Of a stretch of 48,048 nucleotides of DNA, positions 23,356 through 48,048 are shown piece after piece. Within the stretch, counting starts at the first letter, position 1; every line of letters starts with the position of its first letter. Under the pieces are notes generated by a model. That model was not told the origin of the DNA and searched no databases. It saw only the letters and a list, made by a program, of their open reading frames with translations. Source of the stretch: Candidatus Lindowbacteria bacterium RIFCSPLOWO2_12_FULL_62_27 (GTDB taxonomy: Bacteria > Lindowbacteria > 2-12-FULL-62-27); NCBI GenBank assembly GCA_001784175.1, contig MFPR01000027.1, forward strand, positions 45,167 to 93,214, in the 5' to 3' direction. Made by a program: the position numbers and the translations under genes.

Positions 23356-24494
23356 GCTGGCGACCTTGCGCGGAGTCTGCGTTCGATCACTCGTTTCAAC
23401 TGCTCGCGTTTGGGCAGGTGAAGCTGATATTTGGAGACGAAGAGTTTGTTGTCCATGCCGGCCAGGGCGTACTCGGCGAGGGCGTGGTCCTTTTTGGCGC
23501 AGAGCAGGATGCCAACGGGCGGGTTGTCGCCTTTGGCCATGACGTTTTTGCGGTACCACGTCACGTAGGTGTTGAGCTGGCCGATGTTTTCGTGGCTGAA
23601 TTCCTCCAGCTTCAGTTCAATCAGCACATGACACTTGAGGACGCGGTGGTAGAAGACGAGATCCACGAAACCATGCGTATCGCCGATGAGGATGCGTTTC
23701 TGTCGGGACTCGAAACAGAAGCCGTGGCCCAGTTCCAGAAGAAACTCCTGCAACCGGTCCAGCAGTTGGTCTTCCAGATGCGACTCGCCCATGACCTCTC
23801 TCGGTTTCAAGCCGAGGAACTCAAAGATGTAGGGGTCGCGGATGTTCAAGCGCGGTTCGGATTTTTCCGCTCCTCGTCTGGCCAGCGCAGCCAGCTTCTT
23901 CCTGTCGCGGGACAGGCCGGACCGCTCGAAATAGAGCGACGCGATCTGGCGCCGGAGTTCGCGCACCGACCAGCCGCCCTGAACGCATTCGGCCTCGTAA
24001 AAGGCGCGTTTGTGCTTGTCGTCGATTGCGACCAATTGCTCGATGTGCGTGTAAGAGACCTGCTGGAGAAACCCTTTCTTGAAAACCTGAGATTGTGCGG
24101 TCAGTGACCGCACTTTCCCGGACTTGGCGCCGCCTCCATCCGGCAGAAGGAGTTGGAATTGTGCGGGCAGTGACCGCAGAATTTGAGGATAGACTTGGTA
24201 AAATCGGAGGTACTGGTAAAGCTGGCGTTTTCCGCAGGCGCTGACATTCGACGTTTCCAGTTCAACCGACAGCTTCGCAAACAGCTCACTTCCATATTTT
24301 GCCCGGTCGGCGCCACGCAGTTCATATTCGGCGATGTAACATCCGATCAGCCAATTGCGCATGGTCAGAGCGATGTTGACCGCGCGGCCGGCCTGCGCGG
24401 CCAGATTGTCATGAACAGCGCGGATAGACTTGACGAGTTCGGCAAAGGTGAGACGCGCCCGGCCGGCAATCGCGGATTTATTTGGTTTCGTCAC
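23352..24494 (-). CDS. YhcG/DUF1016 family PD-(D/E)XK nuclease
   Basis: RNWLIGCYIAEYE...RAKYG, WSVRELRRQI, IRDPYIFEFL, FLLELGHGFCF, VDLVFYHR..KCHVLIELK, DNPPVGILLC. Confidence 0.92.
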   Translation of the reverse strand: MTKPNKSAIAGRARLTFAELVKSIRAVHDNLAAQAGRAVNIALTMRNWLIGCYIAEYELRGADRAKYGSELFAKLSVELETSNVSACGKRQLYQYLRFYQVYPQILRSLPAQFQLLLPDGGGAKSGKVRSLTAQSQVFKKGFLQQVSYTHIEQLVAIDDKHKRAFYEAECVQGGWSVRELRRQIASLYFERSGLSRDRKKLAALARRGAEKSEPRLNIRDPYIFEFLGLKPREVMGESHLEDQLLDRLQEFLLELGHGFCFESRQKRILIGDTHGFVDLVFYHRVLKCHVLIELKLEEFSHENIGQLNTYVTWYRKNVMAKGDNPPVGILLCAKKDHALAEYALAGMDNKLFVSKYQLHLPKREQLKRVIERRLRARSPA

Positions 24495-26908: not shown

Positions 26909-27496
26909 TTACCCCATACCTTTTATCCCAGGCCCAAACCGGCGGCGGTTTTCAATGACTTTCCTGCCGGCGGCCGTTGTGCGGTATCGCTGGAGGCGGC
27001 TGTTGGGTTTGTCGGGGATCGTGTATTCGATCAGACCGGTTTGCAACGCGGGCTGAAGATATTTTTCAATGAAGTGCATCTTATCCACAAGCTCCACGAT
27101 TGCCTGAAGTTCTTCCCGCGATTTTTCCTTCACAGCAGCCTTGAGAAGTTTTCCGACTGTAGGGGTGACTGTAGGGGCGACTGTAGGGGCGACTTGCGGG
27201 GTCTTCTTCGTCTCCGCTTTCCGGAATCGTACAACAAACGATGTGCCTCGCTCCTCAAACTCCGGGCCGGGAATGCCCGCCTCCCGACAAAGCCTGACGA
27301 TCTTCATCGTGCCCTGGCCAAACCTCTCGATGAGGCCGACGTAGAAGAAGGCCGTCGCGATCAGTTTGTTCCGAGGAAGGGATTCATGAGTGCGTTTCAG
27401 GTCGCGGATCGAAAGTCCCGGATGCAGTCGCCCGGGATTCCAGATTTCGAGCGCATGGTCAAAAATCCGGAGCATCACGTTCCCCGTGGACGTGTA
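26909..27496 (-). pseudogene. 5'-truncated ATP-binding regulator fragment (HATPase_c_4 + Fic-associated HTH C-terminus)
   Basis: Begins at YTSTGNVMLRIFDHALEIWNPG, i.e. just after the family HRD motif, with no upstream AlbA domain; then PRNKLIA..F...GLIERFGQG and TIPDKPNSRLQRYRTT. Confidence 0.7.
27154..27201. repeat. 12-bp in-frame tandem repeat x4 (YGACTGTAGGGG-like), encoding PQVAPTVAPTVTPTV
   Basis: cgactgtagggg tgactgtagggg cgactgtagggg cgacttgcgggg read directly from the sequence. Confidence 0.85.
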
Positions 27497-27566
27497 TGGG
27501 GGCAAGGTGGTTATTCAAACGATGATTGACAGTGACACATTGACCGCCCAGCGCGTCATTGATTTT

Positions 27567-29951
27567 ATGCTGGAGATGGATCAGGAATTGGAACAGGCTC
27601 GACTTGAAATCGAAAAACTGAGAAATGAGAACGTAGAACTTCGGAAGATGCTGGAATTGCCGGCCACCGAATCACAACCCCATCTTGAAATGGGCATTCG
27701 CGAAGTCGTGCTCGATTCCAAGCCATTGCCCTCAATGACAAAAGATTCGCCCACAAAAGAAAAAATCGCGTTGTTCCGGATGCTCTTCAGAGGCAGGGAC
27801 GATGTATATGCGCTCCGTTGGGAGAATGAGCGAACAGGCAAGAGAGGTTATTCCCCGGTGCGCGAGGGAGGGGCGGTCGGGAAAGCGGCGAAATCCAAAA
27901 AATATTTGCCGTTGACGGATCAAGCCGTCCAGTACCATTTGTCGGGTGAGAAGACGATTGGCGTCTATCCGCTGCTCTTGGACAATACCTGCTGGTTTCT
28001 TGCGTGTGATTTTGACAAAGAGGGGTGGACGCTGGACGCACTCGCGTATCTGAATGTTTGCAATCGATATGGACTGCCTGCCTATCTGGAGCGTTCCCGG
28101 TCGGGCAATGGCGGCCATGTGTGGACCTTTTTCTCGTCACCCGTTTCAGCGACTTCGGCCAGGCAGTTGGGTATGAGATTGCTTCGGGAAACAATGGTTG
28201 TGCGCGGCGAGATGGACCTTGCCAGTTACGATCGATTTTTCCCGAATCAGGATTTTGTCCCCAAAGGCGGGTTTGGAAATCTCATCGCCCTGCCGCTCCA
28301 GAAAAAATGCCGGCGGCTTGGGAACACGGAATTCGTAAACCCCCACGATGCTGACCTCCGGCCATGGTCGGACCAGTGGGGATTTCTCAGCCAAGTCAAA
28401 AGGCTGTCCTCCGTTCATGTTGATGCCCTGCTTGAAAAAATTCCGCCGATCTCCGTCGGATTGGGATCCACGGCCAAGGTTTCCGCTGAATTGTCTCGAA
28501 AATATCCTGCTCCGCCCAAGATTCGCTGCACGTTTGCCAGTGCATTCAGTATCGAAAAATCCGGCGTCCCACCTTGGCTTCTCTCACAGATCAAGCATCT
28601 CGCGTCACTTCATAATCCTGAATTCTACCGGCGCCAGAAATTGAGACTGGAGACATATCGGACGCCAAGATTTGTCAAATGCTACGGCGAAGACATGAGT
28701 CACCTTCACCTGCCGCGCGGGGCGCTGGATGATCTGCAAGGGATATTCGCCGAAGCCAATTCGGAGATGGACATCATCGATCGCCGCCCCAGATTTGAAA
28801 AATTGGATATGCACTTCCAAGGATCGCTCAGACCTGAGCAGGAGAAAGCTCTGCATGCCGCCTTGTCACACGATATGGGCGTTCTGATTGCGCCGCCGGG
28901 AGCGGGCAAGACGGTCATGGGATGCTTTGCCGTTGCAACGCGGAGCGTGCCGACGCTGATATTGGCCCACCGAAAGCCCATCCTCGATCAATGGCGGACA
29001 CATTTGATGGAACACTTGGGACTGAAATCGAAGGAAATCGGGCAGATCGGCGGAGGCAGAAAGCGATTGAGCCGGCTTGTGGATCTGGCGATGATCCAGA
29101 GTCTCGAACGGATGGAGGATATGGAGGATTTATTTTCTCAATACGGATTCATTGTCGTCGACGAATGCCAGCACATCCCGGCTTATACATTTGAAAGATG
29201 CGTCAAGAAGGCCGCAGCGCGCTACATCCTCGGCCTCACAGCGACACCCCACCGCCGTGACGGATTGCAAGGGATAATCGAGATGCAGTGCGGTCCGATC
29301 CGCTACCGGATGCCGGCGGCGAAAAACGGCATGACCGTTCATTTGATCGAGAGGTCGACAAAATTTTCATACCCCTCGGCCGATCTCTCGGCTCCGGCCA
29401 TACAGGACATTTTTGGCGCTCTGGTCAAAGACGATCTCCGAAATGCGTTGATCATGGAAGATGTCCGGCAGGCGCTGTCACAGAAGGGGCATTGCCTGAT
29501 TCTGACTCACAGAAAAGAACATTGCCGAATACTTGCGGAGGGGCTGGCCGGATCCGGCGCAAATCCATTTGTGCTGACCGGCGATTTGGGCAAGAAAGAA
29601 CGGACGGCCATCATCAAGGCGATTCAGAATTTGCCTGTCGATGGAGAATTCATCATCGTTGCCACAGCCCAGTACCTCGGCGAGGGATTCGACTGCCCGC
29701 AGGTCGACACCCTCTTCCTGGCATTCCCCATTTCGTTCAAGAGCAATCTGGTTCAATACGTCGGAAGATCACTGCGAACCTGTGAGGGCAAAGAGAGCGT
29801 CCAGATTTATGACTATGTGGACACCGAAGTGCCGGTGCTCAAGAGAATGTCCGCCAAGCGCGTCAAGGCTTATAAATCTCTCGGGATTGGCGTAGATGAC
29901 GACGAGGTATCTTCGCGAGAATACACTTTGCCCATGCCGGCGGGGCGCTGA
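27567..29951 (+). CDS. AEP primase-like (TOTE-conflict-system type) domain fused to SF2 DEAD/DEAH (ResIII-like) helicase
   Basis: KIALFRMLFRGRDDVYA, GVYPLL..TCWFLACDFD, ERSRSGNGGHVW, DRFFPNQD..PKGGFGNLIALPLQ; helicase APPGAGKT, VDECQH, GLTATP, GEGFDCP, QYVGR. Start uncertain (27522, 27567 or 27576). Confidence 0.85.
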   Translation: MLEMDQELEQARLEIEKLRNENVELRKMLELPATESQPHLEMGIREVVLDSKPLPSMTKDSPTKEKIALFRMLFRGRDDVYALRWENERTGKRGYSPVREGGAVGKAAKSKKYLPLTDQAVQYHLSGEKTIGVYPLLLDNTCWFLACDFDKEGWTLDALAYLNVCNRYGLPAYLERSRSGNGGHVWTFFSSPVSATSARQLGMRLLRETMVVRGEMDLASYDRFFPNQDFVPKGGFGNLIALPLQKKCRRLGNTEFVNPHDADLRPWSDQWGFLSQVKRLSSVHVDALLEKIPPISVGLGSTAKVSAELSRKYPAPPKIRCTFASAFSIEKSGVPPWLLSQIKHLASLHNPEFYRRQKLRLETYRTPRFVKCYGEDMSHLHLPRGALDDLQGIFAEANSEMDIIDRRPRFEKLDMHFQGSLRPEQEKALHAALSHDMGVLIAPPGAGKTVMGCFAVATRSVPTLILAHRKPILDQWRTHLMEHLGLKSKEIGQIGGGRKRLSRLVDLAMIQSLERMEDMEDLFSQYGFIVVDECQHIPAYTFERCVKKAAARYILGLTATPHRRDGLQGIIEMQCGPIRYRMPAAKNGMTVHLIERSTKFSYPSADLSAPAIQDIFGALVKDDLRNALIMEDVRQALSQKGHCLILTHRKEHCRILAEGLAGSGANPFVLTGDLGKKERTAIIKAIQNLPVDGEFIIVATAQYLGEGFDCPQVDTLFLAFPISFKSNLVQYVGRSLRTCEGKESVQIYDYVDTEVPVLKRMSAKRVKAYKSLGIGVDDDEVSSREYTLPMPAGR

Positions 29952-29952
29952 A

Positions 29953-31374
29953 ATGAATCCCGGCCGGAATGAAAGATGTCCCTGCGGCAGCGGGAAGAAA
30001 TACAAGAAATGCTGCATTGACAATCCGAAGGCGTCCTGGCGAAAGCCGGCGGCAGAGCCGGTTTCCACTCCTGTCAGAGCCGCAGACAGAGATGATGATG
30101 AATTTGAGGATGAGGAAGACGAAATGGAAACCGGTGAGGATGCGGAGTCGGATGACGAAATGGCAGGCGTTTCACGGGGGACCAAATCCAGGTTCGAGCG
30201 GATTCGATACCCGGAGCCGGACGCATCCCTTCCTAAAATATCTCCGGAGGATGAACGCATCGTCGACCAATGGTGGATCGATTTCAAGCCCGTATACAAA
30301 GGGAGTGACCGCGGTGAAATGACCAAACGCATCGCAGACTTTATGGACGCCCATCCCGGGTTGTTCGTCCATTTGCGATTGGACGATGAGGCTTTGTTTG
30401 AACTTGGGGCCATGTACGGCCGTAAGCAGGAATGGAACATATTTGTGGATTTATTAAATCGCATCAGGCAGGAACACCCTCGCGCATACCTTCGGGCGTT
30501 CGGATACTGCGATTCGTATATCATCGCGCATCTTTTAGCGAGCGGGAGGAACAATGAGATTCCCGAATATTTGAAAAATTTCAAGACCTATCCCGACACG
30601 GATCCGGATGATTTGCGGCGCGTGATCGACATGCTTGCCTTGGCCGATATGACGGAGGTTCTGGGAGACCTGATTGAGGCCGTGGCCATTCCTCTGTGCC
30701 AATCATCGAAAATCATCAACAGCGGATTTGCCTTCCGCTGGGTGATATTCAGGCGGATGATCCCCCGGCTTGATCGGAAATCCTATCCGGAGGATGACGC
30801 GCGGCTCATCGTCGATGAATTGAACGCCCTGCATCCTCCATTTGATTTCGATCCGGGAACATTTCGCCGAACACTTGCCTGCTACGCCGCGCCACCGGAT
30901 TTTCGTGACATCAAACTCATGCGGATGGAAAAACTATTCGAAATTTATATCCATGTCGTCTGCCATTTTTGCGCTTGGCTGCATGAGAAGAGGAGCATGG
31001 GGTGGATTCGCGCGCGATTTCTGGCGGATCGGCTTGAAGAGTACTTGTTGGACATTCCCTCCGGCAAGCGTCCGAAAACCCCGTTTCGTTTTTCAGATGA
31101 ACGGATGGAGCGCCACATCTCCACACACTACAAATGGATCGTCAGCATCCACGGCGTTCCCGCCATGGCATTTCTGCACGCCGTATTTCTGTTTTCAGAA
31201 TATCTTCTGGAGGCCGGGTATCACGACCGGGCGGAGTGTGGCCGGATCCAATCCGAGTGTTTGAATGTCTTGGATCGTTGTAAGAAGGTGTGCGATCCGA
31301 CAGATCCGGCGGCGCGTCTCTATACACATTTCCCGCATCTGGCGGCCGGCTCCCCGCCTGCCGGCGTCAGGTAA
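29953..31374 (+). CDS. SEC-C zinc-binding motif protein with acidic linker and helical domain
   Basis: MNPGRNERCPCGSGKKYKKCC; starts 1 bp after the helicase stop. Confidence 0.85.
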   Translation: MNPGRNERCPCGSGKKYKKCCIDNPKASWRKPAAEPVSTPVRAADRDDDEFEDEEDEMETGEDAESDDEMAGVSRGTKSRFERIRYPEPDASLPKISPEDERIVDQWWIDFKPVYKGSDRGEMTKRIADFMDAHPGLFVHLRLDDEALFELGAMYGRKQEWNIFVDLLNRIRQEHPRAYLRAFGYCDSYIIAHLLASGRNNEIPEYLKNFKTYPDTDPDDLRRVIDMLALADMTEVLGDLIEAVAIPLCQSSKIINSGFAFRWVIFRRMIPRLDRKSYPEDDARLIVDELNALHPPFDFDPGTFRRTLACYAAPPDFRDIKLMRMEKLFEIYIHVVCHFCAWLHEKRSMGWIRARFLADRLEEYLLDIPSGKRPKTPFRFSDERMERHISTHYKWIVSIHGVPAMAFLHAVFLFSEYLLEAGYHDRAECGRIQSECLNVLDRCKKVCDPTDPAARLYTHFPHLAAGSPPAGVR

Positions 31375-36414: not shown

Positions 36415-37902
36415 TCAGTCAGAATTTTCACGTTGGATTTTCGTGCTCAACGCCAATTTTCGGCCAGCCTCGCAGAGCGCGCGGACGCGCTCCTTTTCAG
36501 CATGTCGGAGATGTGGATTGCCAGATTCAGCCGCGAGAAACTCGATGATGTCGAAATACGTGGCGACGATGGTCGGCAACCCGTGGAGTTCGATAAACGA
36601 GGATCCCGGGATAAAGTGCGCGACCTTGTTTCGGATTTCGTTTTTTAAAATATCGACAGCTTCTTTCTGATCTGCTGTGAGAGTCAGAGTTTGTGAAAAT
36701 ACGTATTGTTTCATCCACCCGTCCTCCTGACATCTTTTGAGCGCGGTATCAAAATTGATCAGCTTGAGCCGGCCCCCACCGTCCGTCTTTGTCACACGCA
36801 TATAGTCAGTACCCTTAATCGCGCAAACAGCAAATCCATATAACGAGCCATGTAACGAGATGCAAACCCATTTCCATGCCCACGGATTTTTCTCGACATC
36901 CATGAGGGAGCGAACAGCCATCTCCAAGTAATCGAGCGCGTTGGATTCCTCCGTGAGTTCCCAATAGGCAGTCTCGACCGTCTCCGAGACTTTGGGTTGA
37001 ATTTCAGGGCGCGAAAACTGAAACAGAATCTTATTTTTTGCTGCATCAAAGACGTAAATTTTTCCGAACGGCGAGGAAGCGATATTTTGCTCAACAAATG
37101 AAGAGAATGCCGGCAGCCAAATATCTTCGGGCAGGACAGGCTGGGATTCGTAAAATGCCAAAAGCTCGATAGGCGCGTCTGTTGTGTATTTCTTTTCGAA
37201 TTTTTTCTGAACCGCCTCCAATGCCGGTTCACCGAACGACCCGGTGGCATCCACACCGAAAAGCGGTCCTTGAAGGTGTTCATACCGAGAAACATTGAGC
37301 CAGTCCACGGTACCTAAGAGGGGGGAATGATTCTTGATGAGAAACAGAGGCGACCTCCGATATTGAGGAAACACGACACGGACATGGTCGTCCGCACGCG
37401 CGAACTCCGCATGTCTGTAAACTTTTTCGTAGTCCTCTCTATATTCTGCAAATCTGTTTGTTCCGGTTATGGATTCAGCAGAAGACAAAAGAAGGTCGAG
37501 GATGGCCGGCACCGCATCCGCCCGACGCCGATAGGCAGCCTCGTCCTGAAAAGAAACATATATCGAACAATGTTGATAACGAGATAAAAAAGATGCATGC
37601 CGATCGTCCGGCAAGCTCTTGAATGCGCCGACAAGCAACTCCCGCAGCCGTGTCGCGTCGCTATCCCGTCTGGCCATGCTCTCGTCGATGATCTCAACAA
37701 GCTCGAAGGCCATGTCCCCGCGCCCATCGGTTGAGCAGAGAATATCCGGTTCCGGTGACTGGCGTTTTTGGATGGAATTCGGAGATACGGCAAGTTTGGC
37801 CGCCACGACAAATTGATTGAATATCGTCAACTCATGGTTTCCCTGTGGGTCGCGACCCTCTTTCACGCCACCCGGCCTGCCTTCGGTGTGTGAATCATAC
37901 AA
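36415..37902 (-). CDS. Hypothetical two-domain protein: restriction-endonuclease-like N-domain + HEPN-like C-domain
   Basis: E...PEPDIL...AFELVE (PD-(D/E)XK-like) in the N half; helical C half with RNKVAH (RxxxxH). AT-richer than flanks; TTG start 2 bp from the upstream stop, alternative GTG at 37866. Confidence 0.65.
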   Translation of the reverse strand: MYDSHTEGRPGGVKEGRDPQGNHELTIFNQFVVAAKLAVSPNSIQKRQSPEPDILCSTDGRGDMAFELVEIIDESMARRDSDATRLRELLVGAFKSLPDDRHASFLSRYQHCSIYVSFQDEAAYRRRADAVPAILDLLLSSAESITGTNRFAEYREDYEKVYRHAEFARADDHVRVVFPQYRRSPLFLIKNHSPLLGTVDWLNVSRYEHLQGPLFGVDATGSFGEPALEAVQKKFEKKYTTDAPIELLAFYESQPVLPEDIWLPAFSSFVEQNIASSPFGKIYVFDAAKNKILFQFSRPEIQPKVSETVETAYWELTEESNALDYLEMAVRSLMDVEKNPWAWKWVCISLHGSLYGFAVCAIKGTDYMRVTKTDGGGRLKLINFDTALKRCQEDGWMKQYVFSQTLTLTADQKEAVDILKNEIRNKVAHFIPGSSFIELHGLPTIVATYFDIIEFLAAESGNPHLRHAEKERVRALCEAGRKLALSTKIQRENSD

Positions 37903-37904
37903 CG

Positions 37905-38612
37905 CTAAACCATCAACCCAAACACAAGATAGTCCTTCGCCTTTCGGGCCAAGGCATCCTTACGCTTTTGCCAATCGGGCACGGCACGGCCCAATGCCTT
38001 CCAAAATTCAGGCCCGTGATGGCCTTCCCGCAGGTGAACGAGTTCGTGCAGGATGATGTAGTCCACGAGCCGGACCGGGAGTTGGAGGACTTTCCAGTTG
38101 AAATACAAAATATCGTTCTTGCCGCACGAGCCCCAGCGAAATCCGAGGTCACGAACTTCAATCCGGGGCGGATTGCTTGCGGCACGGCTCGAAAGGCGTT
38201 CGACCCGGCGGCGAATCCAGTCCGTACCCGTCTCCACATACCAGCGCCGGAAATGCTCCTCGGCGGGCCGGGCATCCCGGCGAAGCATGAACCGGTTGCC
38301 ATCGAAGTGAAGCGGACGCTCCTGCTTTTCCACAACCTTGAGTCCGAACCGGCGACCCAGATAACAGAATGCCTCGCCTGAAACGTATTCGGGAGCCTGC
38401 AACTTGGGCACAGCCTCTTCCTTCAACGCCAGCTTGCGATGCACCCAGAGCAACTTCCGATTGGTCCACCGGGCCAGCTCCACAGCATCGGCCTTCGCGG
38501 GAGCATGAACCACCAACTCGCCGCCTCGATCCACGGTCAAACCGAGAGTCTTGCGGCGAACACTTCGGCGCACCTCAAAGACCAACCCGCCGACCTCCAG
38601 CGTCTCGGTCAT
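37905..38612 (-). CDS. YgjP/DUF45 (M48/SprT-like) metal-dependent hydrolase (system 2)
   Basis: RRSVRRKTLGLTV, YVSGEAFCYLGR, RWGSC, DYIILHELVHL, HGPEFW. Confidence 0.9.
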   Translation of the reverse strand: MTETLEVGGLVFEVRRSVRRKTLGLTVDRGGELVVHAPAKADAVELARWTNRKLLWVHRKLALKEEAVPKLQAPEYVSGEAFCYLGRRFGLKVVEKQERPLHFDGNRFMLRRDARPAEEHFRRWYVETGTDWIRRRVERLSSRAASNPPRIEVRDLGFRWGSCGKNDILYFNWKVLQLPVRLVDYIILHELVHLREGHHGPEFWKALGRAVPDWQKRKDALARKAKDYLVFGLMV

Positions 38613-41600
38613 GAGCGGGTCAGGTATTCGTGATTCTCGCGCGCCAAGGCCACGAGGCGTTGCGCAAGATCGCGTTCGCCGCCGGCCCGGCAGATTCCGG
38701 CGCGGTCGATGTCGCGAACCAACGTCCGCGTCAACAGTTCCCGCATGTCGTCATTCTTCCAGAATCCGACCTTGCGTACTTCCTGGCGAACGCGGTCCAC
38801 CATCTCCAGCGTGGCCGAGAGTGCGGTCGTTCGCTGCGCTTCGGTCAGTTCACGCCCTTTGCCGCATTCCTCCAGAACGAGACGGACGAACGGCACTTGC
38901 ACTTTCGGGTCAAGGTCGGGGAATTCGTTGCGGTCGCCGCGCCGCAACTCGTCGATGAACTTTCGGAGCTCCCTCTCCAGCGCATCCCAATCATCTTTAA
39001 ACCGCCGAAGAATTTCCTCCAACTTCTCGCTCATCTTCCGGGCATAGGCCGGATTCTGATTGGTAAAGCCGATGATGTGATAGCGCGCGGCGTGCTGCAT
39101 CTGCGCCGCGCGGGCGCGGCTGTTGGACTGGCCTTGGAGCACTTTCTCAAATTCCGCGTCGGTGATGGCCGTCGGCGGAATCTTCGGGTCAACGCCCCGG
39201 GCGGAGATGTGCGCATAGATGAGCGCCTTCACCTTCTCCGCCACGCCCAGAAGATTGAGCGCGGGGTCGCGATAGAGGTTGGCCGCAACCTTGTTGATGA
39301 ATCCAAGCAACTTGGCGTCTCGGAACACGGACGTCGGTACTTCCGGGCGGTGCTCCAGCAGGCCCAGCATTTCGTAAAACATCCGCAGTTTGTTGATAAA
39401 ATCGGCGCGAATCTTCAGATCTTCGAGCATCTGCACGCACACATCCACTTGGCCCTGCAAATCCGTCACGCCCCGGTCGGTGAACACCGCGACGGCCCGC
39501 GCCCGCCGGTCGAGCAGTTTCGGCAATTCGACGTTGATGTCGATCAATGCGCACTCGATATCCTCGCCGTCGTAATCCTTCAGCGCATCGTTCAAATGGC
39601 GGGCCACGCCGATGTAGTCCACCACGTAACCGCATTTCTTCTGTCCGGAAGTCCGGTTCACCCTGGCGATGGCTTGCAATAGATCGTGCGCGACGACTTT
39701 CCTGTCAAGGTACAGCACCTGCTCCACCGGCGCGTCGAATCCCGTGAGCAGCATGTTCATCACCACGAGAATCGAAAGCGGGTCGGTCTTGTCCGTTTTT
39801 GCCGCGCCGAATTTCCGTTTGAACCGCTTGATCACATCTTCCTGCTTGTCCTTGTCCGACCACTCCCACCATGACTCCGGGTCGTTGTGGTTGCCGGAAA
39901 AAACGGCCGCAATCTCCATCGCGCGCAGTTTGGGCAGTTGCGGATGGGTTTGTACCAGAAAGCGCGTCTTTGCATCGAGCTTGACGAGTTCGTCATCGGA
40001 GAGCGCCAGCGTTGCAGCGGGCACGGCTTCCAGTTCCGCGACCAGTTCATTCCGCGCCTGCGCCAATTTGTCGATATAGGTCATGACCGCCGGGCGGCTG
40101 GTGGCCACGACCTGCGCCTTGAATCCCTCGGGCAACACCACGCCGGCGTAATGCCGGATCATGTCGCGCGCCTTTTGCTCGATGAGCATGGGCGCTTCGA
40201 TCACGTCGCCCTCGGTCGCGTACTTGGCTTTGATGAGCGCCAGTTCGTCGGGGGTGTAATCGCGGAACATGTCCTCAAACACCGCGTCGAGGCTGGGCGC
40301 ATCCTTCACGATGCCGTCCGCCGTCCGGCCCTCGTAGAGAATCGGCACGGTCGCGCCGTCCAGTTCCGCGTCCTGGAGGATGTATTTGTCAATGAAGTCG
40401 CCGAATATCTCGCGGGTCTCCTTCTTTTCACTGCTCAAGATCGGCGTGCCGGTGAATCCGATGACGGCGGCGTTCGGCAGGGCCCGGCGCAGGTTGCGGT
40501 GCAGGGTGCGCGTGTGCGACCGGTGCGCCTCGTCCACCAGCACGAGGATTTCCTCCGAGTCGTTGAGCTGTGGAAACTCCTCGAAGCGGATGTTCTCCGT
40601 GAAGGTGACTTCCTTCCCGACGACCTCTTCGTGCTTGCCCGGTTTCTTTTCCTTGCGGACGATCGTCATCGCCACCTTGTCGTCAGGGCGGCTGCCCGCC
40701 TGCGGCAGAACGGCGAGGCTTTTACCGTCGGTCCTGCCGCCCACCGGTTGATACTTTTGCAGCATCGCCATGACGATGTCCGGCGTGCGCTCGCTCAAGA
40801 GCCGCTGGGTTAACGCCGTCGGCGACTCGCGCGATCTCAAATCCTCGTCCGTCGGCCGCACCGATTCCCCGCTCAACCGCGCCGTCGCGCCAAGCTGGTC
40901 CTGCAAATCCGTGCGGTCGGTCACGACGACAATCTTGAAACGGTTCAGGCGCGGCATCATCCGCATCTTTCGAACGAGGAAGACCATGCTAAGGCTCTTG
41001 CCCGACCCTTGCGTGTGCCAGACGATGCCCCCGCGCTCGTCGCGGTCCGCTCCCCGCGCTTTCGTTCGGCCTTCCTGCAATTTTTTCACCGCCTTATGGA
41101 TGGCGCGGAACTGCTGGTATCGCGCCACCACCTTGCGCGTCTTGCCGTCCACCTGCTGGAACAGCGTAAAGTTGCGGATGAGGTCGAGCAGATGCGCCGG
41201 GCGCAACATGCCGGCGGCGAGAATCTGCTGGCTTTGGAGCGTAGCGCCCTGCCCGCGCAAGGCGGCGGGCCGTTGCTCCGGTTTACGGAAGAAGAGCGGC
41301 GTGCCGACGCGGTCGCCTTGTTCCTGTCCGAGCGTGGCCAGTTCCTGCGCGGCTTCCGTCGTGTCGGCGGACCGGGGCAACACGCCGAGTTCCTCCGCCA
41401 CTGTGCCGAGCGGCACGGGACTGGTATCCGCCCATTCCAGATACGCCTCCGGCGGCGCGCCGACCGTGGCCGCGCGCGCTTCGAAGAGATTGCTGGCGAT
41501 GAGCAATTGGTTCGTGTGAAAGAGCCGCTCGACGCCCTCGTTTTCGGTGTAGAGCGTGGGAAATAATTCCTTGCGCTGATTCGTGTAACGCAGGAGCTGG

Positions 41601-42142
41601 TTGATGGCCTCCTGCAACGGATTTTGGATGCCGGGACTTTTGAATTCCGCCACCGCCACCGGGATGCCGTTCACGAACAGAACCGCGTCCGGAATGACGT
41701 GACCGCGGCCGCTGGTCAACTCCACCTTGAACTGGTTGATGACGAGAAAATCATTGTTGGCCGGGTTCTCGAAATCAATGAACCGCACCGGCTGGTTGCG
41801 CCCGAAATTCCAATCCGGCAGACCGTCAATCTCCGTTCCCTTGAGCAGCATCCGGGTCGCCGACTCGTTGACTTCCATCAGGCGATGGCCCTCGGCCTTC
41901 TCCAGCTTTTCGATGATACGGCGGATGCGGTCATCATCAAGCCACGTCTGGCCGTCTTTGCCCAGATTGAGCTTCCGCAGCGCTGCGGCGAGCCGCCCTT
42001 TGAGCAACACCTCGCGGAAGTTGGCGCGCTCGGTGAATTCCGCCACGTCCGTGTCGCCCTCAATCCACTGCCAGCCCATCGCCTTGAGCTGTTCGCAAAA
42101 AGGGCGCTCGACGAGATCGTATTCCCATTGGACTTTGCTCAT
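38609..42142 (-). CDS. hsdR: Type I restriction endonuclease subunit R (system 2)
   Basis: IPDAVLFVNGIPVAVAEFK, WHTQGSGKS, LVDEAHRS, GFTGTP, MLLTGFDAP, LLQAIARVNR. Confidence 0.96.
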   Translation of the reverse strand: MSKVQWEYDLVERPFCEQLKAMGWQWIEGDTDVAEFTERANFREVLLKGRLAAALRKLNLGKDGQTWLDDDRIRRIIEKLEKAEGHRLMEVNESATRMLLKGTEIDGLPDWNFGRNQPVRFIDFENPANNDFLVINQFKVELTSGRGHVIPDAVLFVNGIPVAVAEFKSPGIQNPLQEAINQLLRYTNQRKELFPTLYTENEGVERLFHTNQLLIASNLFEARAATVGAPPEAYLEWADTSPVPLGTVAEELGVLPRSADTTEAAQELATLGQEQGDRVGTPLFFRKPEQRPAALRGQGATLQSQQILAAGMLRPAHLLDLIRNFTLFQQVDGKTRKVVARYQQFRAIHKAVKKLQEGRTKARGADRDERGGIVWHTQGSGKSLSMVFLVRKMRMMPRLNRFKIVVVTDRTDLQDQLGATARLSGESVRPTDEDLRSRESPTALTQRLLSERTPDIVMAMLQKYQPVGGRTDGKSLAVLPQAGSRPDDKVAMTIVRKEKKPGKHEEVVGKEVTFTENIRFEEFPQLNDSEEILVLVDEAHRSHTRTLHRNLRRALPNAAVIGFTGTPILSSEKKETREIFGDFIDKYILQDAELDGATVPILYEGRTADGIVKDAPSLDAVFEDMFRDYTPDELALIKAKYATEGDVIEAPMLIEQKARDMIRHYAGVVLPEGFKAQVVATSRPAVMTYIDKLAQARNELVAELEAVPAATLALSDDELVKLDAKTRFLVQTHPQLPKLRAMEIAAVFSGNHNDPESWWEWSDKDKQEDVIKRFKRKFGAAKTDKTDPLSILVVMNMLLTGFDAPVEQVLYLDRKVVAHDLLQAIARVNRTSGQKKCGYVVDYIGVARHLNDALKDYDGEDIECALIDINVELPKLLDRRARAVAVFTDRGVTDLQGQVDVCVQMLEDLKIRADFINKLRMFYEMLGLLEHRPEVPTSVFRDAKLLGFINKVAANLYRDPALNLLGVAEKVKALIYAHISARGVDPKIPPTAITDAEFEKVLQGQSNSRARAAQMQHAARYHIIGFTNQNPAYARKMSEKLEEILRRFKDDWDALERELRKFIDELRRGDRNEFPDLDPKVQVPFVRLVLEECGKGRELTEAQRTTALSATLEMVDRVRQEVRKVGFWKNDDMRELLTRTLVRDIDRAGICRAGGERDLAQRLVALARENHEYLTRS

Positions 42143-43359
42143 GGCGTGGCTCCGATCGTTTCCGGCACGCGGACGCGGCCGGTGAGCAGGTCGGTCATCA
42201 GGCCGGATTTCAGGTCACGGAGCTTGGAGAATTCGCGCATTGTCGCTACAATCTCACGATCAATTGTATCAAGTGCATCGGAAATCTTCGTTTGCTCGGC
42301 AGGTGGTGGGATTCTCAGCGGAACAAATTCCAGATTGCGTTGTGTGAGCTTGGGTTGAGCTGAGCCAAGCAGCCAAGGGACGTAGTCCTGCGCCTCCAGA
42401 ATTGTGGCCAAGAAACGAACATCTGTGGTTGGTAGTGGCTCAAAAATGTGAGCGTGATTGTTTACCCAGAACTTACCGGAAGCGATAAAGGCCAAAGGTA
42501 ATTGGCGCGAACGTAGATTCTCGCCGTCCTCTCCGATGAGAACGAAATCTCCGTCAAACAGATAGTCATCAATGAAATCAATTACGCCCGACGCGCCGTA
42601 GTATGGATATATACCGTGCCTCGTATCTCGGTCACCCTGCTTTAACGGCACTCGGCGAGCGTCTCGATTGTTAGCCAAGGCTGAAACATTTCTGACGATC
42701 CACTCGCTGGGGATGCGGCCAATGGGGGAGTCTTGGAATTGTTCGGGGTGGGCGATGGGGTCGCGGAGTTGGCCGTTTTGGTCGAGGCCGCGGGTGAGGA
42801 GGTCGTGGAGCAGGCCGGCGCGCACCTGCCGCAGTTTCGCAATCACCGCCTCCGTCTTCGCGATCGCTTCGTCCACCGTGTCCAGCACAGCCGTGATGCG
42901 CCACCGCTCCTCCTTCTCTGGACAGAAAACACTAATGCGCCGAACGTCACTTTCATTGACCGCTGGATAGCTTGACCCTGTTTCGAGGGCGCGAAGCTGT
43001 GTTGCAACTGAGTCACCAAAGATTTGGTGAAAGACAAAACCGGAGTCCCCGGATAAGTTGGGCCGCAAAACGGCGAAGCCTGTCGAACCAACGAGCGGAG
43101 CATCTGCTTCTTGGCGGATTCTTGCATGCGCTTGTAGGCCCGGTCGGACAGTGCAGAGCAAAACGTCTCCCGAACGCAACCGCCTCCGCGCCCGGCTCGG
43201 AGCGTTCGCATATTTCCACAGTTGCGTTGCCGACCAATCAACTTGGCCTTTCGTCACAGCCGAGATGTCGAGATATCGGAACTCCATGTCCATCGGAGTG
43301 GCGGCACCGAGAGCCTCCGGGTTGATGCTACAAAGGGAGTCGAGAGTTTGCGTGCTCAT
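42139..43359 (-). CDS. hsdS: Type I RM specificity subunit S (system 2)
   Basis: APSRARR..RSGDVL TRD1, YPYYGASG..WVNNHAH TRD2, conserved I.AVLDTVDEAI...GLLHDLLTRG and EQ..I..LD.ID...GLMTDLLTGRVRV repeats. Confidence 0.93.
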   Translation of the reverse strand: MSTQTLDSLCSINPEALGAATPMDMEFRYLDISAVTKGQVDWSATQLWKYANAPSRARRRLRSGDVLLCTVRPGLQAHARIRQEADAPLVGSTGFAVLRPNLSGDSGFVFHQIFGDSVATQLRALETGSSYPAVNESDVRRISVFCPEKEERWRITAVLDTVDEAIAKTEAVIAKLRQVRAGLLHDLLTRGLDQNGQLRDPIAHPEQFQDSPIGRIPSEWIVRNVSALANNRDARRVPLKQGDRDTRHGIYPYYGASGVIDFIDDYLFDGDFVLIGEDGENLRSRQLPLAFIASGKFWVNNHAHIFEPLPTTDVRFLATILEAQDYVPWLLGSAQPKLTQRNLEFVPLRIPPPAEQTKISDALDTIDREIVATMREFSKLRDLKSGLMTDLLTGRVRVPETIGATP

Positions 43360-45962
43360 GCGTAGCTCAGTTGCTTGAGAAACTCGCTCAGGCTCGTCTC
43401 AACTCCGGTGCGGTCGCCTCGCAGTTGGGCCAGCGTCACCCGATACTTGTCCCACAACCCCTCGATGTATCGAACCAACTCCTGCCGCTTCTCGGCCACG
43501 GCGGCGTCGAGACCGGCTTGCACGTCCTGCTCGAACAGTTCGAGTACGAGCGCGCGCTTCTGATCGCCGTTCAGCGCGGCACAGCGGGACTTGAGTTCGT
43601 TCACGAACTCGTTGGTCAGGGTGCGGTACCGCACGCGAGCTTCGGAGAGCTGTTCCTTGATTTGTTCGTAAGGCGCAAGAGTCTCTGCGTACGCCGCCAG
43701 TTGGTCGAGCACCGGCTGGAGCGCGGCTTTCGCATCGGAGGCGTCGCGCTTGTCCTCGGTCGTGGCGCGGGGCCTGTCGGCGGCGCGTTCCAGTTTGGCG
43801 AGTGTCTTGAGCGCATCCCTGTTTTCAGTTTTGAGTTCGCGCATCTGCCGGTCGATGTCCTTGGCGTAGTTCCAGTCGGCTTGTTCCTCCTCGTCGAGAT
43901 CGTCGGGCGCGTTGCTCTGCTCGAAGGATTCCTTCTCGCCCTTGAGCCGGGCGACGTCGGCCTTGGCGGCGGCGATGCGTTCGAGGTAGTCGCTCATGGT
44001 GCGGCGGACGAGTTTGTGGCCGAAGGGGTCGAAGGCCGGGCCGGCGGCTTCGTCGTCCTCTACCGCATCGGCGATGGCATCCACCCAGCCGTCGATCACA
44101 CCGGGGAATCCGTTTTCGAGCAGGGTCTTGAAGTCGGACAGCGTGTCGGTCCACCAAGTGGCGATGACGCCCGAGAGTTTGAATCGGTCCAGCGTGTTCG
44201 GCGGCAGGAGCGCTTCGACGAAGGTCTCGAGGAACTCGGCGCGGACGCGATTGAGGTCGCGACGACGCGGCAGGTTGGCGAGGCGGGGCGAGTGTTCCGC
44301 CCACCATTCGGCAAGGCGGCGGCGCACCGCCACCAAACACGCCTGAACGCCGGGATCGTTCTCGACCAGCGGGCGAATGGCGGCGCGGTCGGGAAGCGCG
44401 GCGGCGAAGTCGAGATAAGCGGGATCATTCTCGCGCCTGGCGAAGGCGTGGGACGAGTTGAATCCGAGCGCATCAAAGAGCGGGCGCTTGTCCGTCACTT
44501 CGGCCGCGGGCACGCCGCCGAGCAGGTGAGCACGCACGTCGTGCGGCTCGGGCGGCGGCGAGTTGTCCACGTACCGGCGGATGTTGAGATTGAAATCATT
44601 GGCGTCGCCGGCGATTTCAGTGATGGGAACGACGCGGGCATAGCCGGGGATGTCCTGGTAGCGGTCGAAGGTGGAGACGATTTTCTCGATGTGTTCCGGC
44701 CGGAGATAGTTTTGCGCGCGGCCGGCATGAAACTCGGCGTCGGCATTGATGAAAAGCACCCGGCCGCGGCGGTCGGCGGGCTTGTTCGGATTCGGCGCTC
44801 GGCCGGTGAGGTTCGGGCGCATTACGAGAATGCAGGCCGGGATGCCGGCGCCGTAGAACAGATTTTGCGGCAGACCGATCACGGCTTCGATGAGATCCTC
44901 TTCGAGAAACTTTTTCCGGATTTCCTTTTCCGCCCCGCCGCGAAAGAGCACGCCATGGGGCATGACGGTGGCAACCATGCCGCCGTTTTTGCAGACGGCG
45001 AGCATGTGCTGGGCGAACATGAGGTCGCCCTTCTTGCCCGAGGTCGGACACCATCCCCAGCGAAACCGCTCGGGAAATTCCATATTGGTGCGGGTGTAAT
45101 TCTGGCTGAAGGGCGGATTGGCGATGACGCGGTCGAAGCGTTCAAGTTCCCCGGCATCGCGGTGCTGGGGATGGAGCAGAGTATCTTGCAACTGAATGTC
45201 CGCGCCGGGCACGCCGTGCAGAAGCATATTCAACCGGCAGATGGACCATGCGGAGGCGTCGTTGACCTGGCCGCAGAGGCGGAGGTTGGTGGGATCGCCG
45301 CCGGATTGCTCGATGAACTCGCGGCTGATGATGAGCATGCCGCCCGATCCGCAAGTGGGATCATAGACGCTCATGCCCGGCGCGGGCTTGAGGATGCGCA
45401 CCATGAGCCGGATGACGTCGCGCGGCGTATAGAAATCGCCGCCCTTCTTTCCCGCCGACTCGGCGAACATGTTGATGAGAAATTCGTAAGCCGCGCCGAG
45501 CAGGTCGGAAAACTGGAAATCCTCATTACGCAGGCGGTGGCGGGTAAAATGCCGGACGAGGTCCTTGCAGGCGTCATCAGACAGAATGCGCTTGTTGCCC
45601 TGGGTACGCAGGAATTGGATATGATCGAGGACGTGTTCGAGGGATTCATTCGCTTCGCTCAAAGCGCCCAGCGCCTTATCGAGGACGCTGCCGTAAACCA
45701 CGGTGCCGTCGTTGAGTTTGTCCTGGAGGAATTGCCACCTGGCGATCTCGGGAACAAAGAAACCGTCGTAGTAGTCCGGTTTCTCGCGATTACGCTCCGG
45801 AAGTTTCTCCCGATCCGCCTCAAAGACATCGGAGCAACGCTTTAGAAAGAGCATTCCAAAGATGTAATCTTTGTAGGTGGCGGCATCGAGGCCCTCCTGC
45901 CGCAGCCGGTCGGCGGCCGAGTACAGGTGACGTTCGAGTTTAGCAAGAGAAAGACGTGGCAT
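43356..45962 (-). CDS. hsdM: Type I RM methyltransferase subunit M (system 2, N6-adenine)
   Basis: LSLAKLERHLYSAADRLR, GGDFYTP, YDPTCGSGG, IANPPF, MPHGVLFRGG, long coiled-coil C-terminal extension. Start at ATG 45962; the ORF-track extension to 46205 overlaps the divergent gene. Confidence 0.95.
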   Translation of the reverse strand: MPRLSLAKLERHLYSAADRLRQEGLDAATYKDYIFGMLFLKRCSDVFEADREKLPERNREKPDYYDGFFVPEIARWQFLQDKLNDGTVVYGSVLDKALGALSEANESLEHVLDHIQFLRTQGNKRILSDDACKDLVRHFTRHRLRNEDFQFSDLLGAAYEFLINMFAESAGKKGGDFYTPRDVIRLMVRILKPAPGMSVYDPTCGSGGMLIISREFIEQSGGDPTNLRLCGQVNDASAWSICRLNMLLHGVPGADIQLQDTLLHPQHRDAGELERFDRVIANPPFSQNYTRTNMEFPERFRWGWCPTSGKKGDLMFAQHMLAVCKNGGMVATVMPHGVLFRGGAEKEIRKKFLEEDLIEAVIGLPQNLFYGAGIPACILVMRPNLTGRAPNPNKPADRRGRVLFINADAEFHAGRAQNYLRPEHIEKIVSTFDRYQDIPGYARVVPITEIAGDANDFNLNIRRYVDNSPPPEPHDVRAHLLGGVPAAEVTDKRPLFDALGFNSSHAFARRENDPAYLDFAAALPDRAAIRPLVENDPGVQACLVAVRRRLAEWWAEHSPRLANLPRRRDLNRVRAEFLETFVEALLPPNTLDRFKLSGVIATWWTDTLSDFKTLLENGFPGVIDGWVDAIADAVEDDEAAGPAFDPFGHKLVRRTMSDYLERIAAAKADVARLKGEKESFEQSNAPDDLDEEEQADWNYAKDIDRQMRELKTENRDALKTLAKLERAADRPRATTEDKRDASDAKAALQPVLDQLAAYAETLAPYEQIKEQLSEARVRYRTLTNEFVNELKSRCAALNGDQKRALVLELFEQDVQAGLDAAVAEKRQELVRYIEGLWDKYRVTLAQLRGDRTGVETSLSEFLKQLSYA

Positions 45963-46055
45963 GGCAGGAACGATACCTTTTGGTCGGGCAAGAGGGCAAC
46001 GGGATAAATTCTTCTCGCTTGAATAAATTCGAGGTTCGATATAATTTCGTTTGTG

Positions 46056-46937
46056 ATGGTCAAACGAAAAAGAGAAAAGGGCAGAAAAATCAGAATACAG
46101 GAGTATAATTTTCTGTCCATAGACACAGTTTCCTCCACAGAACTTTGTTCCATCGTGGGTACGGCCCAAATCGACGCAGTCGTCCATACCTTTAATATGC
46201 TGCACGATACGTTGCTGTCGGCCATCCGCGGTCGATATGATGAATATCGCTGGTCATTTGATGGCGGACTCTGGAAACGGCGGATTGTTGACGCGCGCAT
46301 CGACGCTGAGAAAACTGTTCAAACCGGGTTTGAAATATTTCAACGAATCAATGCCATCAATAGAAAACACCGGTTGGGCAATGGGCGCGTCATTGCCCTG
46401 CGCGTCGTGGCCCATAAAGGAAAGGTAGTGTTCTCCGGCCCCACATGGGGTACCGCCTTCAGTCCGGCCCTTGGGGCGCTGGCCAAATATGAAAAACAAG
46501 CCGTGAATGGTGAAATATGGCGGTTTCATATCAGCGAAGATATTTACGAAGATTTGCCAAACAAAATCCAAAAAAAGTTTGAACTCGGTGGTGGATCCAT
46601 ATCCGAGATTGGACGAAGCGGCGGAACACGGTTTTACCAGTCTCAGCGGCTATTCGGCGGCCCTGCTCTCCGCGAAGCTCATTTACGCTTTAGGGATGGC
46701 AATCCGAGTCCGATGGGTAAGAAGAAAACAGATTCGATTAATTCAGTGGTCAAAAAGGCAAAATCTCTTATGAAAAAGAATGAGCACAGGAAAGCCTACA
46801 GGATGCTGTTGAAAGCCCATGGAACTGACCGTCTAAACAAATCTTTCTTGACACTGCTGGTCAGCATATGTAAACATCTCGGGTGGATGGCAACAGCAGG
46901 ACAGTATCAACAACTTCTGGGGTCCCGACAAGAATGA
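46056..46937 (+). CDS. Divergent class III nucleotide (adenylate/guanylate) cyclase-like protein with TPR-like C-terminal helices
   Basis: FLSIDTVSST (first Asp), WSFDGG (second Asp), LRVVAHKGKV (RxGxHxG variant), ALAKYEKQA, FHISEDIYEDL match class III cyclase motif order and spacing. TATAAT at 46040-46045 just upstream. Confidence 0.65.
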   Translation: MVKRKREKGRKIRIQEYNFLSIDTVSSTELCSIVGTAQIDAVVHTFNMLHDTLLSAIRGRYDEYRWSFDGGLWKRRIVDARIDAEKTVQTGFEIFQRINAINRKHRLGNGRVIALRVVAHKGKVVFSGPTWGTAFSPALGALAKYEKQAVNGEIWRFHISEDIYEDLPNKIQKKFELGGGSISEIGRSGGTRFYQSQRLFGGPALREAHLRFRDGNPSPMGKKKTDSINSVVKKAKSLMKKNEHRKAYRMLLKAHGTDRLNKSFLTLLVSICKHLGWMATAGQYQQLLGSRQE

Positions 46938-47770
46938 AAATGAAGAATAGACGCGCAATGGGGGGAATGCCAATACTGCGGCAGCCGAGACCGAGGAAGA
47001 CTGTTCTTATTGGGAGCAAAAAAATCGGTAGCGGCCCCACACGGATCATCTGCGTCGTGGGTGGAAAGTCTGCCCTGAAGGATGCCCTGACGGCCAAGAG
47101 ACAGGGTGCGGACATATTAGAGGCCAGGGTGGATTTGTGGGACAACCCAGGTCAGGCAAAAACCGACCTCCGCGAACTCAGAAAAATGAAAATACTGCCT
47201 ATTATCGCAACGGTCCGGCGCGTCCAAGAGGGCGGATTTTGGCCGGAGAATGAAGAGATAGATAGAAAGAATTTTTTAGGGGAAATTATCGATGAGGAGC
47301 TTGCGGATTGCATCGACATCGAACTCAACGCCACCAAAATCCGTACGGCCATTCTGCAATTGTGCAAGAGGAATGAGATTGCCACGATCGTGTCTTACCA
47401 TGATTTCGTAGGGACGCCGTCTTCGTCCCAACTCTCAAAAATCATTGACCGGATAAACCGAACAGGCGCGGACATTATTAAAGTGGCGGTCATGGCCAAT
47501 AGCCGGGAAGATGTCCATCAAGTCATACGGCTGACGGAAAAATATGCAAAAAAGCTCAGGCCCATGGTGATGATTTCGATGGGCGAGCTGGGTCGACCCA
47601 CGCGCGTCATGGCGGGTCTTTTTGGATCGTCCATGACGTATGGTTATTGCAGTGCCCAACCCATGGCGCCGGGCCAAGTGCCAGTTACTGAATTGAAAAA
47701 AGCTTTGCAAATGTCCCCCAACAATATTTCCGGACAGGTTCGTTTCTCTGATTTAGCCGCGGTTCTCTAA
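46934..47770 (+). CDS. aroD: Type I 3-dehydroquinate dehydratase
   Basis: ADILEARVD, IIATVRR..EGG, IDIEL, IVSYHDF..TP (catalytic His), GADIIKVAVM (Schiff-base Lys), ISMGELG..TR, APGQ; ATGA overlap with the cyclase-like gene. Confidence 0.92.
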   Translation: MKMKNRRAMGGMPILRQPRPRKTVLIGSKKIGSGPTRIICVVGGKSALKDALTAKRQGADILEARVDLWDNPGQAKTDLRELRKMKILPIIATVRRVQEGGFWPENEEIDRKNFLGEIIDEELADCIDIELNATKIRTAILQLCKRNEIATIVSYHDFVGTPSSSQLSKIIDRINRTGADIIKVAVMANSREDVHQVIRLTEKYAKKLRPMVMISMGELGRPTRVMAGLFGSSMTYGYCSAQPMAPGQVPVTELKKALQMSPNNISGQVRFSDLAAVL

Positions 47771-47804
47771 ATTCCGACAACTCCCACCCGCAAAAACTGG
47801 GTTG

Positions 47805-47834
47805 GGCAGCCTATATGGCCGCCTTTTTATTTTT
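47805..47834 (+). terminator. Possible intrinsic terminator after aroD
   Basis: GGCAGCC-TATAT-GGCCGCC stem (one mismatch) followed by a T-rich run. Confidence 0.4.
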
Positions 47835-48048
47835 CCCAATTGAGATTCCTTCCTATGCTTGGCCCAAGCTGGATGTTCAATTCGGAACGCACTGCGTTCC
47901 GTTTTCCTGTCGCATCTGATTCATCACGCGGTGAGTGATGAATCGGGGGAGGCCAAATAAAAGTGCCTCTTCCGGTTTTCCTGTGGGTGAATTTTCGAGG
48001 TTGTGAGTCATAATCATCTGGTGCAAGGTGAGATGAGACTGCCAACGG

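Follow-up and report, generated by a model that had tools for sequence, protein, structure and literature searches.

We analysed a stretch of 48,048 nucleotides (nt) from Candidatus Lindowbacteria bacterium RIFCSPLOWO2_12_FULL_62_27, an uncultured groundwater organism (contig MFPR01000027.1, positions 45,167 to 93,214; hereafter the window) and focused on a two-gene unit close to its end. Gene 1 encodes a protein of 293 amino acids with similarity to class III nucleotide cyclases, and gene 2 encodes AroD, a type I 3-dehydroquinate dehydratase (dehydroquinase). The unit diverges from the hsdM gene of a type I restriction-modification (R-M) system across an AT-rich spacer of 93 nt (36% GC at 46001-46150). 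At 46934-46937 the two genes meet in an ATGA overlap, in which the stop codon TGA of gene 1 (46935-46937) shares bases with the ATG of gene 2 (46934-46936). A first-pass annotation of the DNA had described the same divergent unit and the same stop/start overlap, and had proposed that the pair might combine signalling with a metabolic enzyme during phage infection. Gene 2 also has in-frame ATGs at 46940, 46958 and 46967, and the gene caller picked 46940 (P0012, 276 amino acids). Because several starts are possible, the genes either overlap by 4 nt or are separated by 2-30 nt.

Gene 2 and the shikimate genes of the host

Gene 2 matched PF01487 with an E-value (E) of 1.4e-55 and 189.3 bits (cut-off 22.2), covering residues 47-258 of 278, and TIGR01093 with 176.9 bits (cut-off 139.3). 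H156 and K183 aligned with chain positions 167 and 194 of the tagged Salmonella structure 3l2i, which we take to be His143 and Lys170 of Salmonella, the catalytic residues. Gene 2 keeps every one of the 27 invariant columns of an alignment of 11 AroD sequences, H156 and K183 among them, so the catalytic residues are intact as first annotated. Its sequence is that of a complete type I dehydroquinase.

Gene 2 resembles known type I AroD proteins (Salmonella 3l2i/1gqn, C. difficile 3js3) in its full-length match and in its catalytic and invariant residues, but it is set apart from them by an identity of at most 38%, an N-terminus extending about 20 residues beyond the start of Salmonella AroD, redundancy with aroQ, foreign composition and a cyclase-like partner gene. 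The best non-self match was 37% identical among 5.8 billion clustered proteins and 38% identical among 60 other genomes, and no close AroD relatives were found in the genome contig set.

The genome contains one PF01487 match, which is gene 2 itself, and one aroQ gene, immediately preceded by aroE and aroC on contig C43. Type II dehydroquinases (PF01220) are present in all three genomes of the same family (81-91% complete), and type I enzymes (PF01487) in none of them. No other shikimate or quinate genes are present in the window, including the 46 kb upstream of the unit. This agrees with the first-pass annotation, which had noted their absence nearby and had raised the question of a separate housekeeping dehydroquinase; the aroE-aroC-aroQ cluster answers it. 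On this comparison of gene content and sequence, the AroD of gene 2 is an extra, laterally acquired copy beside the housekeeping AroQ. The bacterial AroB (PF01761) was undetected in this 94%-complete genome, and an archaeal-type 3-dehydroquinate synthase II (PF01959, E 5.3e-121) is encoded at C1:96387-97379. Dehydroquinate is probably made by this synthase, whose presence means that the substrate of AroD is available.

The cyclase-homology domain and tail of gene 1

Gene 1 has few relatives. Among 1.84 billion representative proteins, an exhaustive HMMER search found four matches at E<=0.001. The single close relative, P0003, is 83% identical across all 293 amino acids and has the same start; it comes from a 1,232-base contig found in Logan only. 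P0006 is more distant (26% identity, E 2.4e-4 in the same search). P0004 and P0005, which are repetitive immunoglobulin-like (Ig)/SprB surface proteins of about 2,000 amino acids, were rejected as spurious. The family formed by P0006-P0011 is the nearest to gene 1 by sequence, with 19-24% identity and 18 invariant columns that include both aspartates discussed below. Three of its six members have a response-regulator receiver (REC) domain, none has a tetratricopeptide repeat (TPR) tail, and the Joint Genome Institute (JGI) names one of them 'class 3 adenylate cyclase'. No further copies of gene 1 were found in genome, metagenome or viral contig sets or in phage or plasmid records, and none in the 60 other genomes searched.

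The P0006 family connects gene 1 to the cyclases. Aligning gene 1 plus P0003 with this family by hhalign gave a probability of 97.4% (E 9.6e-12, 154 columns), and the family alone matched solved class III cyclases (3mr7, E 1.5e-12; Ma1120, E 1.6e-8). An AlphaFold2 (AF2) model of gene 1, built from an alignment of eight sequences (gene 1, P0003 and the six distant relatives), reached a predicted local distance difference test score (pLDDT) of 67.8. A Foldseek search of the PDB with this model gave 146 matches at E<=0.001, and those listed are all adenylyl or guanylyl cyclases. The best match was 3et6 (E 2.2e-7, template modelling (TM) score by target 0.70), and the TM score by target reached 0.72. 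In the Foldseek viral library, proteins with guanylate cyclase domains came first. A separate model of gene 1 in the ESM Atlas was made independently of our alignment; its aligned part was named PF00211 in eight of ten structure rows (TM score by query 0.52-0.58), and the best feature match, with a score of 0.95, was to Guanylate_cyc+TPR_19 clusters. The genome's own 13 canonical cyclase domains served to build a hidden Markov model (HMM), which scored gene 1 at 17.5 bits. From these profile and model comparisons, residues 16-196 of gene 1 are a class III cyclase-homology domain, sharing the fold of PF00211 proteins such as 3mr7, Ma1120 (4wp8/4wp9), CyaC (1wc0/1wc1) and the Chlamydomonas enzyme 3et6. 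The genome encodes 13 PF00211 class III cyclase domains and 30 domains that bind cyclic nucleotide monophosphates (cNMP), all 30 of them on contigs other than that of the window.

The active site is a mixture of kept and altered positions. The motifs S21-I22-D23 and F68-D69-G70 carry the aligned counterparts of the two metal-binding Asp residues of cyclases, including 3mr7 and Ma1120, and D23 and D69 are invariant across the eight-sequence alignment. The R..H.G motif is kept as R116..H120..G122. In class III cyclases the substrate pair is Lys with Asp or Thr for ATP, and Glu with Cys for GTP. T133 occupies the second substrate position of gene 1, a Thr variant that some class III cyclases share. 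The substrate Lys is presumably replaced by R65, four residues before D69, a position placed from the K-x-x-G-D spacing of cyclases. The transition-state Asn-Arg pair is G140..K144, altered as the first-pass annotation had read it; in the P0006-P0011 family the Asn is present and His takes the place of the Arg of cyclases. Gene 1 differs from the usual residue at three of the six canonical positions (R65, G140 and K144) and is further distinguished from class III cyclases by a Pfam score below threshold and by having one close relative.

According to excerpts of the Ma1120 study, most class III cyclases retain the Asn-Arg pair, whereas Ma1120 keeps the Arg but has Ala in place of the Asn; it is active in this form and loses activity when the Asn is restored (PMC4215837). 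Since Ma1120, like gene 1 without the transition-state Asn, is active with Ala there, Gly140 need not abolish activity. The residues of gene 1 are compatible with catalysis and also with its loss.

The tail of gene 1 is predicted to form five helices (AF2 secondary structure) arranged in TPR-like hairpins. An Atlas structure search with residues 198-293 gave TM scores by query of 0.63-0.69 over about 72-83 residues, mostly to TPR clusters, with all rows below the naming bar. Gene 1 had no Pfam TPR match, and P0003 gave ANAPC3 at E 0.16. Hence the helices of the TPR-like tail proposed in the first-pass annotation were recovered but no TPR model recognised them, and its TPR nature is a lead only. 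The same order of an N-terminal cyclase domain followed by TPR-type helices is seen in XC_0250 of Xanthomonas campestris and in the Atlas Guanylate_cyc + TPR_19 proteins (about 366 amino acids). XC_0250 differs in its size of 886 amino acids, whereas the tail of gene 1 has room for about two helical hairpins and matches no TPR model. In excerpts of PMC3770947, XC_0250 is a guanylate cyclase linked to a GGDEF protein that binds cyclic GMP (cGMP), not to a metabolic enzyme.

The altered residues leave room for a different view, in which gene 1 is a pseudo-cyclase that has kept the fold and perhaps nucleotide binding, has lost catalysis, and regulates or scaffolds the co-translated AroD. Its TPR-like tail might, for instance, dock the extra terminal residues of AroD, and the dehydroquinase would answer a nucleotide or protein cue. 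The deviations at R65, G140 and K144 and the T133 variant are consistent with this, and the ATGA overlap suits an output of both proteins in fixed proportion. The tail is TPR-like, and AroD offers its additional N-terminal residues and a C-terminal end past the Pfam match. However, short tails also occur on other AroDs in the alignment, and neither Asp residue is lost in gene 1, P0003 or any of the six distant relatives. The active Ma1120 is likewise without the Asn (PMC4215837), and a cyclase gene adjoins none of 31 other AroD loci (see below). A complex prediction for gene 1 and AroD gave a score of 0.01 (mark 0.32), which is evidence neither way. We regard a pseudo-cyclase partner as unlikely, although it ranks first among the alternatives.

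Composition, signals and the contig end

Gene 1 has 47.8% GC and a GC content at third codon positions (GC3) of 0.50, and aroD has 50.8% GC and a GC3 of 0.58. The genome has 61.3% GC, and the GC3 of lpxC, hsdM and hsdR is 0.78-0.83 (hsdM 0.78). Because of this difference in GC3 the two-gene unit looks foreign, and the AT-richness noted in the first-pass annotation is borne out. The locus is present in seven public runs from four studies (groundwater and soil), five of which may be the source sample itself, and 13 recorded contigs, of up to 260,454 bases, encode exactly the gene 1 protein.

The unit could be passenger DNA on its way out, which arrived with a mobile element and is useless to the host. 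The strongly atypical GC3, the location beside a repeat and on the margin of a variable region, and the absence of gene 1 from all 60 other genomes and of AroD from the three same-family genomes are in line with this. Yet both reading frames are intact and every catalytic or invariant AroD residue is kept, and gene 1 and its 83% identical relative P0003 preserve full length and the same conserved positions. The locus is also identical across the runs of the four studies, a weak argument given that five of the seven runs may be the source sample. Decaying passengers seem improbable to us and come third among the alternatives.

The features of the unit and its flanks are listed in Table 1. The TTGAAT/TATAAT pair was not called by a consensus promoter scan, which demands a spacer of 16-18 nt and which found three promoter-like sites against 2.1 expected in shuffled sequence, i.e. 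no excess. The TATAAT box of the first-pass annotation is thus present in the sequence but uncalled. If it were used, the mRNA of gene 1 would be leaderless or nearly so, because 10 nt separate the end of the -10 box from the ATG. On the other side of the spacer, the HsdM_N match begins at residue 9 of the hsdM frame. The terminator suggested earlier fared similarly: the weak hairpin and T-run are present, but the terminator scan did not call them. That scan found one site, the second hairpin of Table 1, against 2.8 expected in shuffles, which is not above chance.

Table 1. Positions of the two-gene unit, its putative signals and its neighbours in the window
Feature	Position	Strand	Description
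Gene 1	46056-46937	+	Open reading frame (ORF) of 293 amino acids; class III cyclase-homology domain and TPR-like tail; GTG at 46053
Gene 2 (AroD)	46934-47770	+	278 amino acids counted from the overlapping ATG; type I 3-dehydroquinate dehydratase
Cyclase-homology domain of gene 1	46101-46643	+	About residues 16-196
Helical tail of gene 1	46662-46931	+	About residues 203-292; five predicted helices
hsdM, second type I R-M system	43356-45962	-	Divergent neighbour of gene 1; N6_Mtase E 9.1e-95, HsdM_N E 7.1e-22
Promoter-like TTGAAT-15 nt-TATAAT	46019-46045	+	Putative; read from the sequence; TATAAT at 46040-46045
Weak hairpin, then TTTTTATTTTT	47804-47834	+	RNA fold of 47771-47910, z-score -2.05
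Terminator-like hairpin	47883-47901, T-rich tail to 47910	+	8 pairs (6 G-C); scan call and RNA fold of 47771-47910
Start of multi-copy, mobile-element-like repeat	47965-48048		Closes the contig

The contig ends 278 nt past aroD, inside a multi-copy repeat. The same 73-90 nt open contigs C2, C11, C21 and C23, and the contigs of public runs, which match the window identically, terminate within the repeat. The depth of public contigs climbs about 6-10-fold in the last bin, with loose ends at 47964 in three of the four runs compared. The repeat spans at least 98 nt and has A/T-rich flanks; the interior of the element is unassembled, and no transposase was seen. A core of 21-30 nt also occurs near other contig ends and once within C4, and a possible full copy at C4:221768 contains no transposase-sized ORF. 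Contig C11 encodes a small cNMP-binding protein (PF00027) at 1196-1696, about 1.1 kb from the repeat and with host-like GC.

This contig end allows the unit to be the visible start of a larger cluster, for quinate or hydroaromatic use or for a small-molecule pathway, that was cut by the contig end or by the repeat. Longer assemblies do exist, among them the contig of 260,454 bases with the exact gene 1 protein. Against such a cluster stand the two terminator-like hairpins past aroD, the absence of shikimate and quinate genes from the 46 kb upstream, and the four contigs that could follow (C2, C11, C21 and C23), none of which shares, by eye, a matching target-site duplication with this end. We rank a truncated cluster second among the alternatives and likewise think it unlikely.

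The defence-rich neighbourhood and the possible role of the unit

The setting is rich in defence genes, as originally described. Two type I R-M systems lie in the window (17760-26905 and 38609-45962). The first encloses two extra genes, one with Schlafen/AlbA_2, HATPase_c_4 and HTH domains (20810-22168) and one for a YhcG/DUF1016 PDDEXK nuclease that is a PADLOC PDC-S02 candidate (23352-24494, E 8.4e-125). A TOTE-type archaeo-eukaryotic primase-helicase fusion of 853 amino acids, followed by a 492-residue protein with an N-terminal SEC-C motif, is encoded at 27390-31374, and three 12-nt tandem units (CGACTGTAGGGG) precede it at 27154-27201. The segment 31882-33294 holds a tRNA-Val(CAC) on the minus strand and an integrase gene on its 5' rather than its 3' side. 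No direct (att-like) repeat of this tRNA was found in 17000-48048, and the island of the integrase is therefore without visible ends. An ORF of 495 amino acids on the minus strand (36415-37902; 50.5% GC, GC3 0.55) has no Pfam or PADLOC match and adjoins a gene for a YgjP-like metallopeptidase, just upstream of hsdR of the second system. The hsdM product of that system has 868 residues, of which the methylase domains end near residue 468, leaving a charged C-terminal extension of about 400 residues.

We compared the unit with Pycsar, in which a PycC cyclase is combined with a cNMP-activated PycTM or PycTIR effector, as excerpts of PMC11224242 describe. Pycsar and the unit are alike in their two-gene layout, led by a class III-type domain with two Asp residues, and in their defence-rich location. 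In the same excerpts, the two Asp residues are named as the conserved catalytic residues of PycC cyclases (PMC11224242). Gene 1, however, had no match to the PADLOC model of PycC at E<=1, and gene 2 has no cNMP-binding (PF00027), TIR or membrane effector domain. The Pycsar likeness considered in the first-pass annotation therefore fails on both defining features.

An anti-phage unit of another kind could pair a cyclase-like sensor or signaller with a dehydroquinase effector that diverts dehydroquinate and aromatic precursors or makes a small molecule. The unit lies beside the two R-M systems, the PDC-S02 candidate and the TOTE/PrimPol-helicase, has a foreign composition and borders on a mobile-looking repeat. 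The two Asp residues, which gene 1 has, are the only conserved catalytic residues that the excerpts name for PycC, so its odd active site is compatible with signalling (PMC11224242). On the other side, neither protein matched PADLOC models at E<=1, save for one chance-level hit, and the product of gene 2 is without a known type of effector domain, as noted for Pycsar. No relatives of gene 1 or gene 2 were found in phage, plasmid or viral-contig sets. A full-text search of the literature, with supplements outside its scope, found nothing that ties a dehydroquinase to anti-phage defence or defence islands. It is also not obvious how a second dehydroquinase would starve a phage in a cell that keeps AroQ. 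The location is the sole argument for a sensor or defence function, which is a guess, and we consider a defence module very improbable and the last of the four alternatives.

As an indirect test, we asked whether the pairing is conserved at other AroD loci. We collected 36 such loci with 1.5-kb flanks from other genomes, 31 of them distinct, and scanned them in six frames with two cyclase HMMs. Both HMMs recovered the locus of the window itself, and neither found a cyclase-domain neighbour at E<=1 at any of the 31 distinct loci. A conserved cyclase-AroD module, which the first-pass annotation had envisaged, did not emerge from this comparison.

Overall, the reading that we prefer, and to which we give an even chance, is that the unit is a laterally acquired accessory operon, not of the Pycsar type, that joins an orphan cyclase-type protein with a redundant but presumably working AroD. 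The two genes are tightly or translationally coupled and would be co-transcribed. The analysis establishes the folds, the residues, the redundancy with aroQ, the foreign composition and the coupling, whereas catalysis and dimerisation of gene 1 and any joint function go beyond it. Gene 1 may dimerise like other cyclase-homology domains, use D23 and D69 to bind a nucleoside triphosphate (NTP) and Mg/Mn, and have a non-canonical and probably weak nucleotide cyclase activity, the product of which could feed the large cNMP network of the organism. The tail would serve as a regulatory or protein-binding module. Gene 2 would turn 3-dehydroquinate into 3-dehydroshikimate, with Lys183 forming the Schiff base and His156 acting as the base, and would duplicate AroQ.

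Several points weigh against this accessory-operon reading. Gene 1 had no match at E<=1 to Pfam, NCBIfam or PADLOC models and lies below every Pfam threshold, and sequence searches of the PDB gave only chance matches, both for gene 1 alone and for the profile of gene 1 plus P0003. Since gene 1, alone or with P0003, finds no cyclase by sequence, the link to cyclases runs through one intermediate family, of which one of six members matches PF00211 at E<=0.01, with 19.6 bits against a cut-off of 21.9. The input alignment of the AF2 model contains this same cyclase-linked family, and an AF2 model from the single sequence was unusable (pLDDT 40.6). Catalysis may be lost because Asn-Arg is replaced by Gly-Lys and the substrate Lys by Arg. 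As the contig stops 278 nt after aroD, anything downstream is unseen and the operon could continue. None of the seven runs with the locus is an RNA run, and one strain was seen. Nor does the reading explain why two unrelated functions are so tightly coupled.

In order of falling likelihood, the alternatives discussed above are a pseudo-cyclase partner, a truncated cluster, decaying passengers and a defence module. A further idea, which we hold to be a long shot, is a new conflict or stress module in which an orphan cyclase-fold TPR sensor controls a dedicated dehydroquinase through a nucleotide or by contact, redirecting shikimate flux or making a molecule derived from dehydroshikimate. If true, the direct partner of cyclase-type signalling in such a module would be an enzyme of core metabolism and not a killing effector. 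The pair is one instance from one uncultured population and shows no sign of conservation or expression. The safer reading is that of two accessory genes that arrived together; a functional link between gene 1 and AroD, or a role in defence, is unproven.

Gene 1 indicates that there are class III cyclase lineages so divergent that no curated model detects them; of about 1.8 billion representative proteins, two belong to this one. With its metal-binding Asp residues kept and the Asn-Arg pair replaced, it can help to tell which residues are essential to the fold. Neither the 31 AroD loci nor the literature that we searched offers a precedent for a cyclase-like gene translationally coupled to a spare dehydroquinase. 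If the two proteins do cooperate, they would form a new link from nucleotide signalling to aromatic metabolism.

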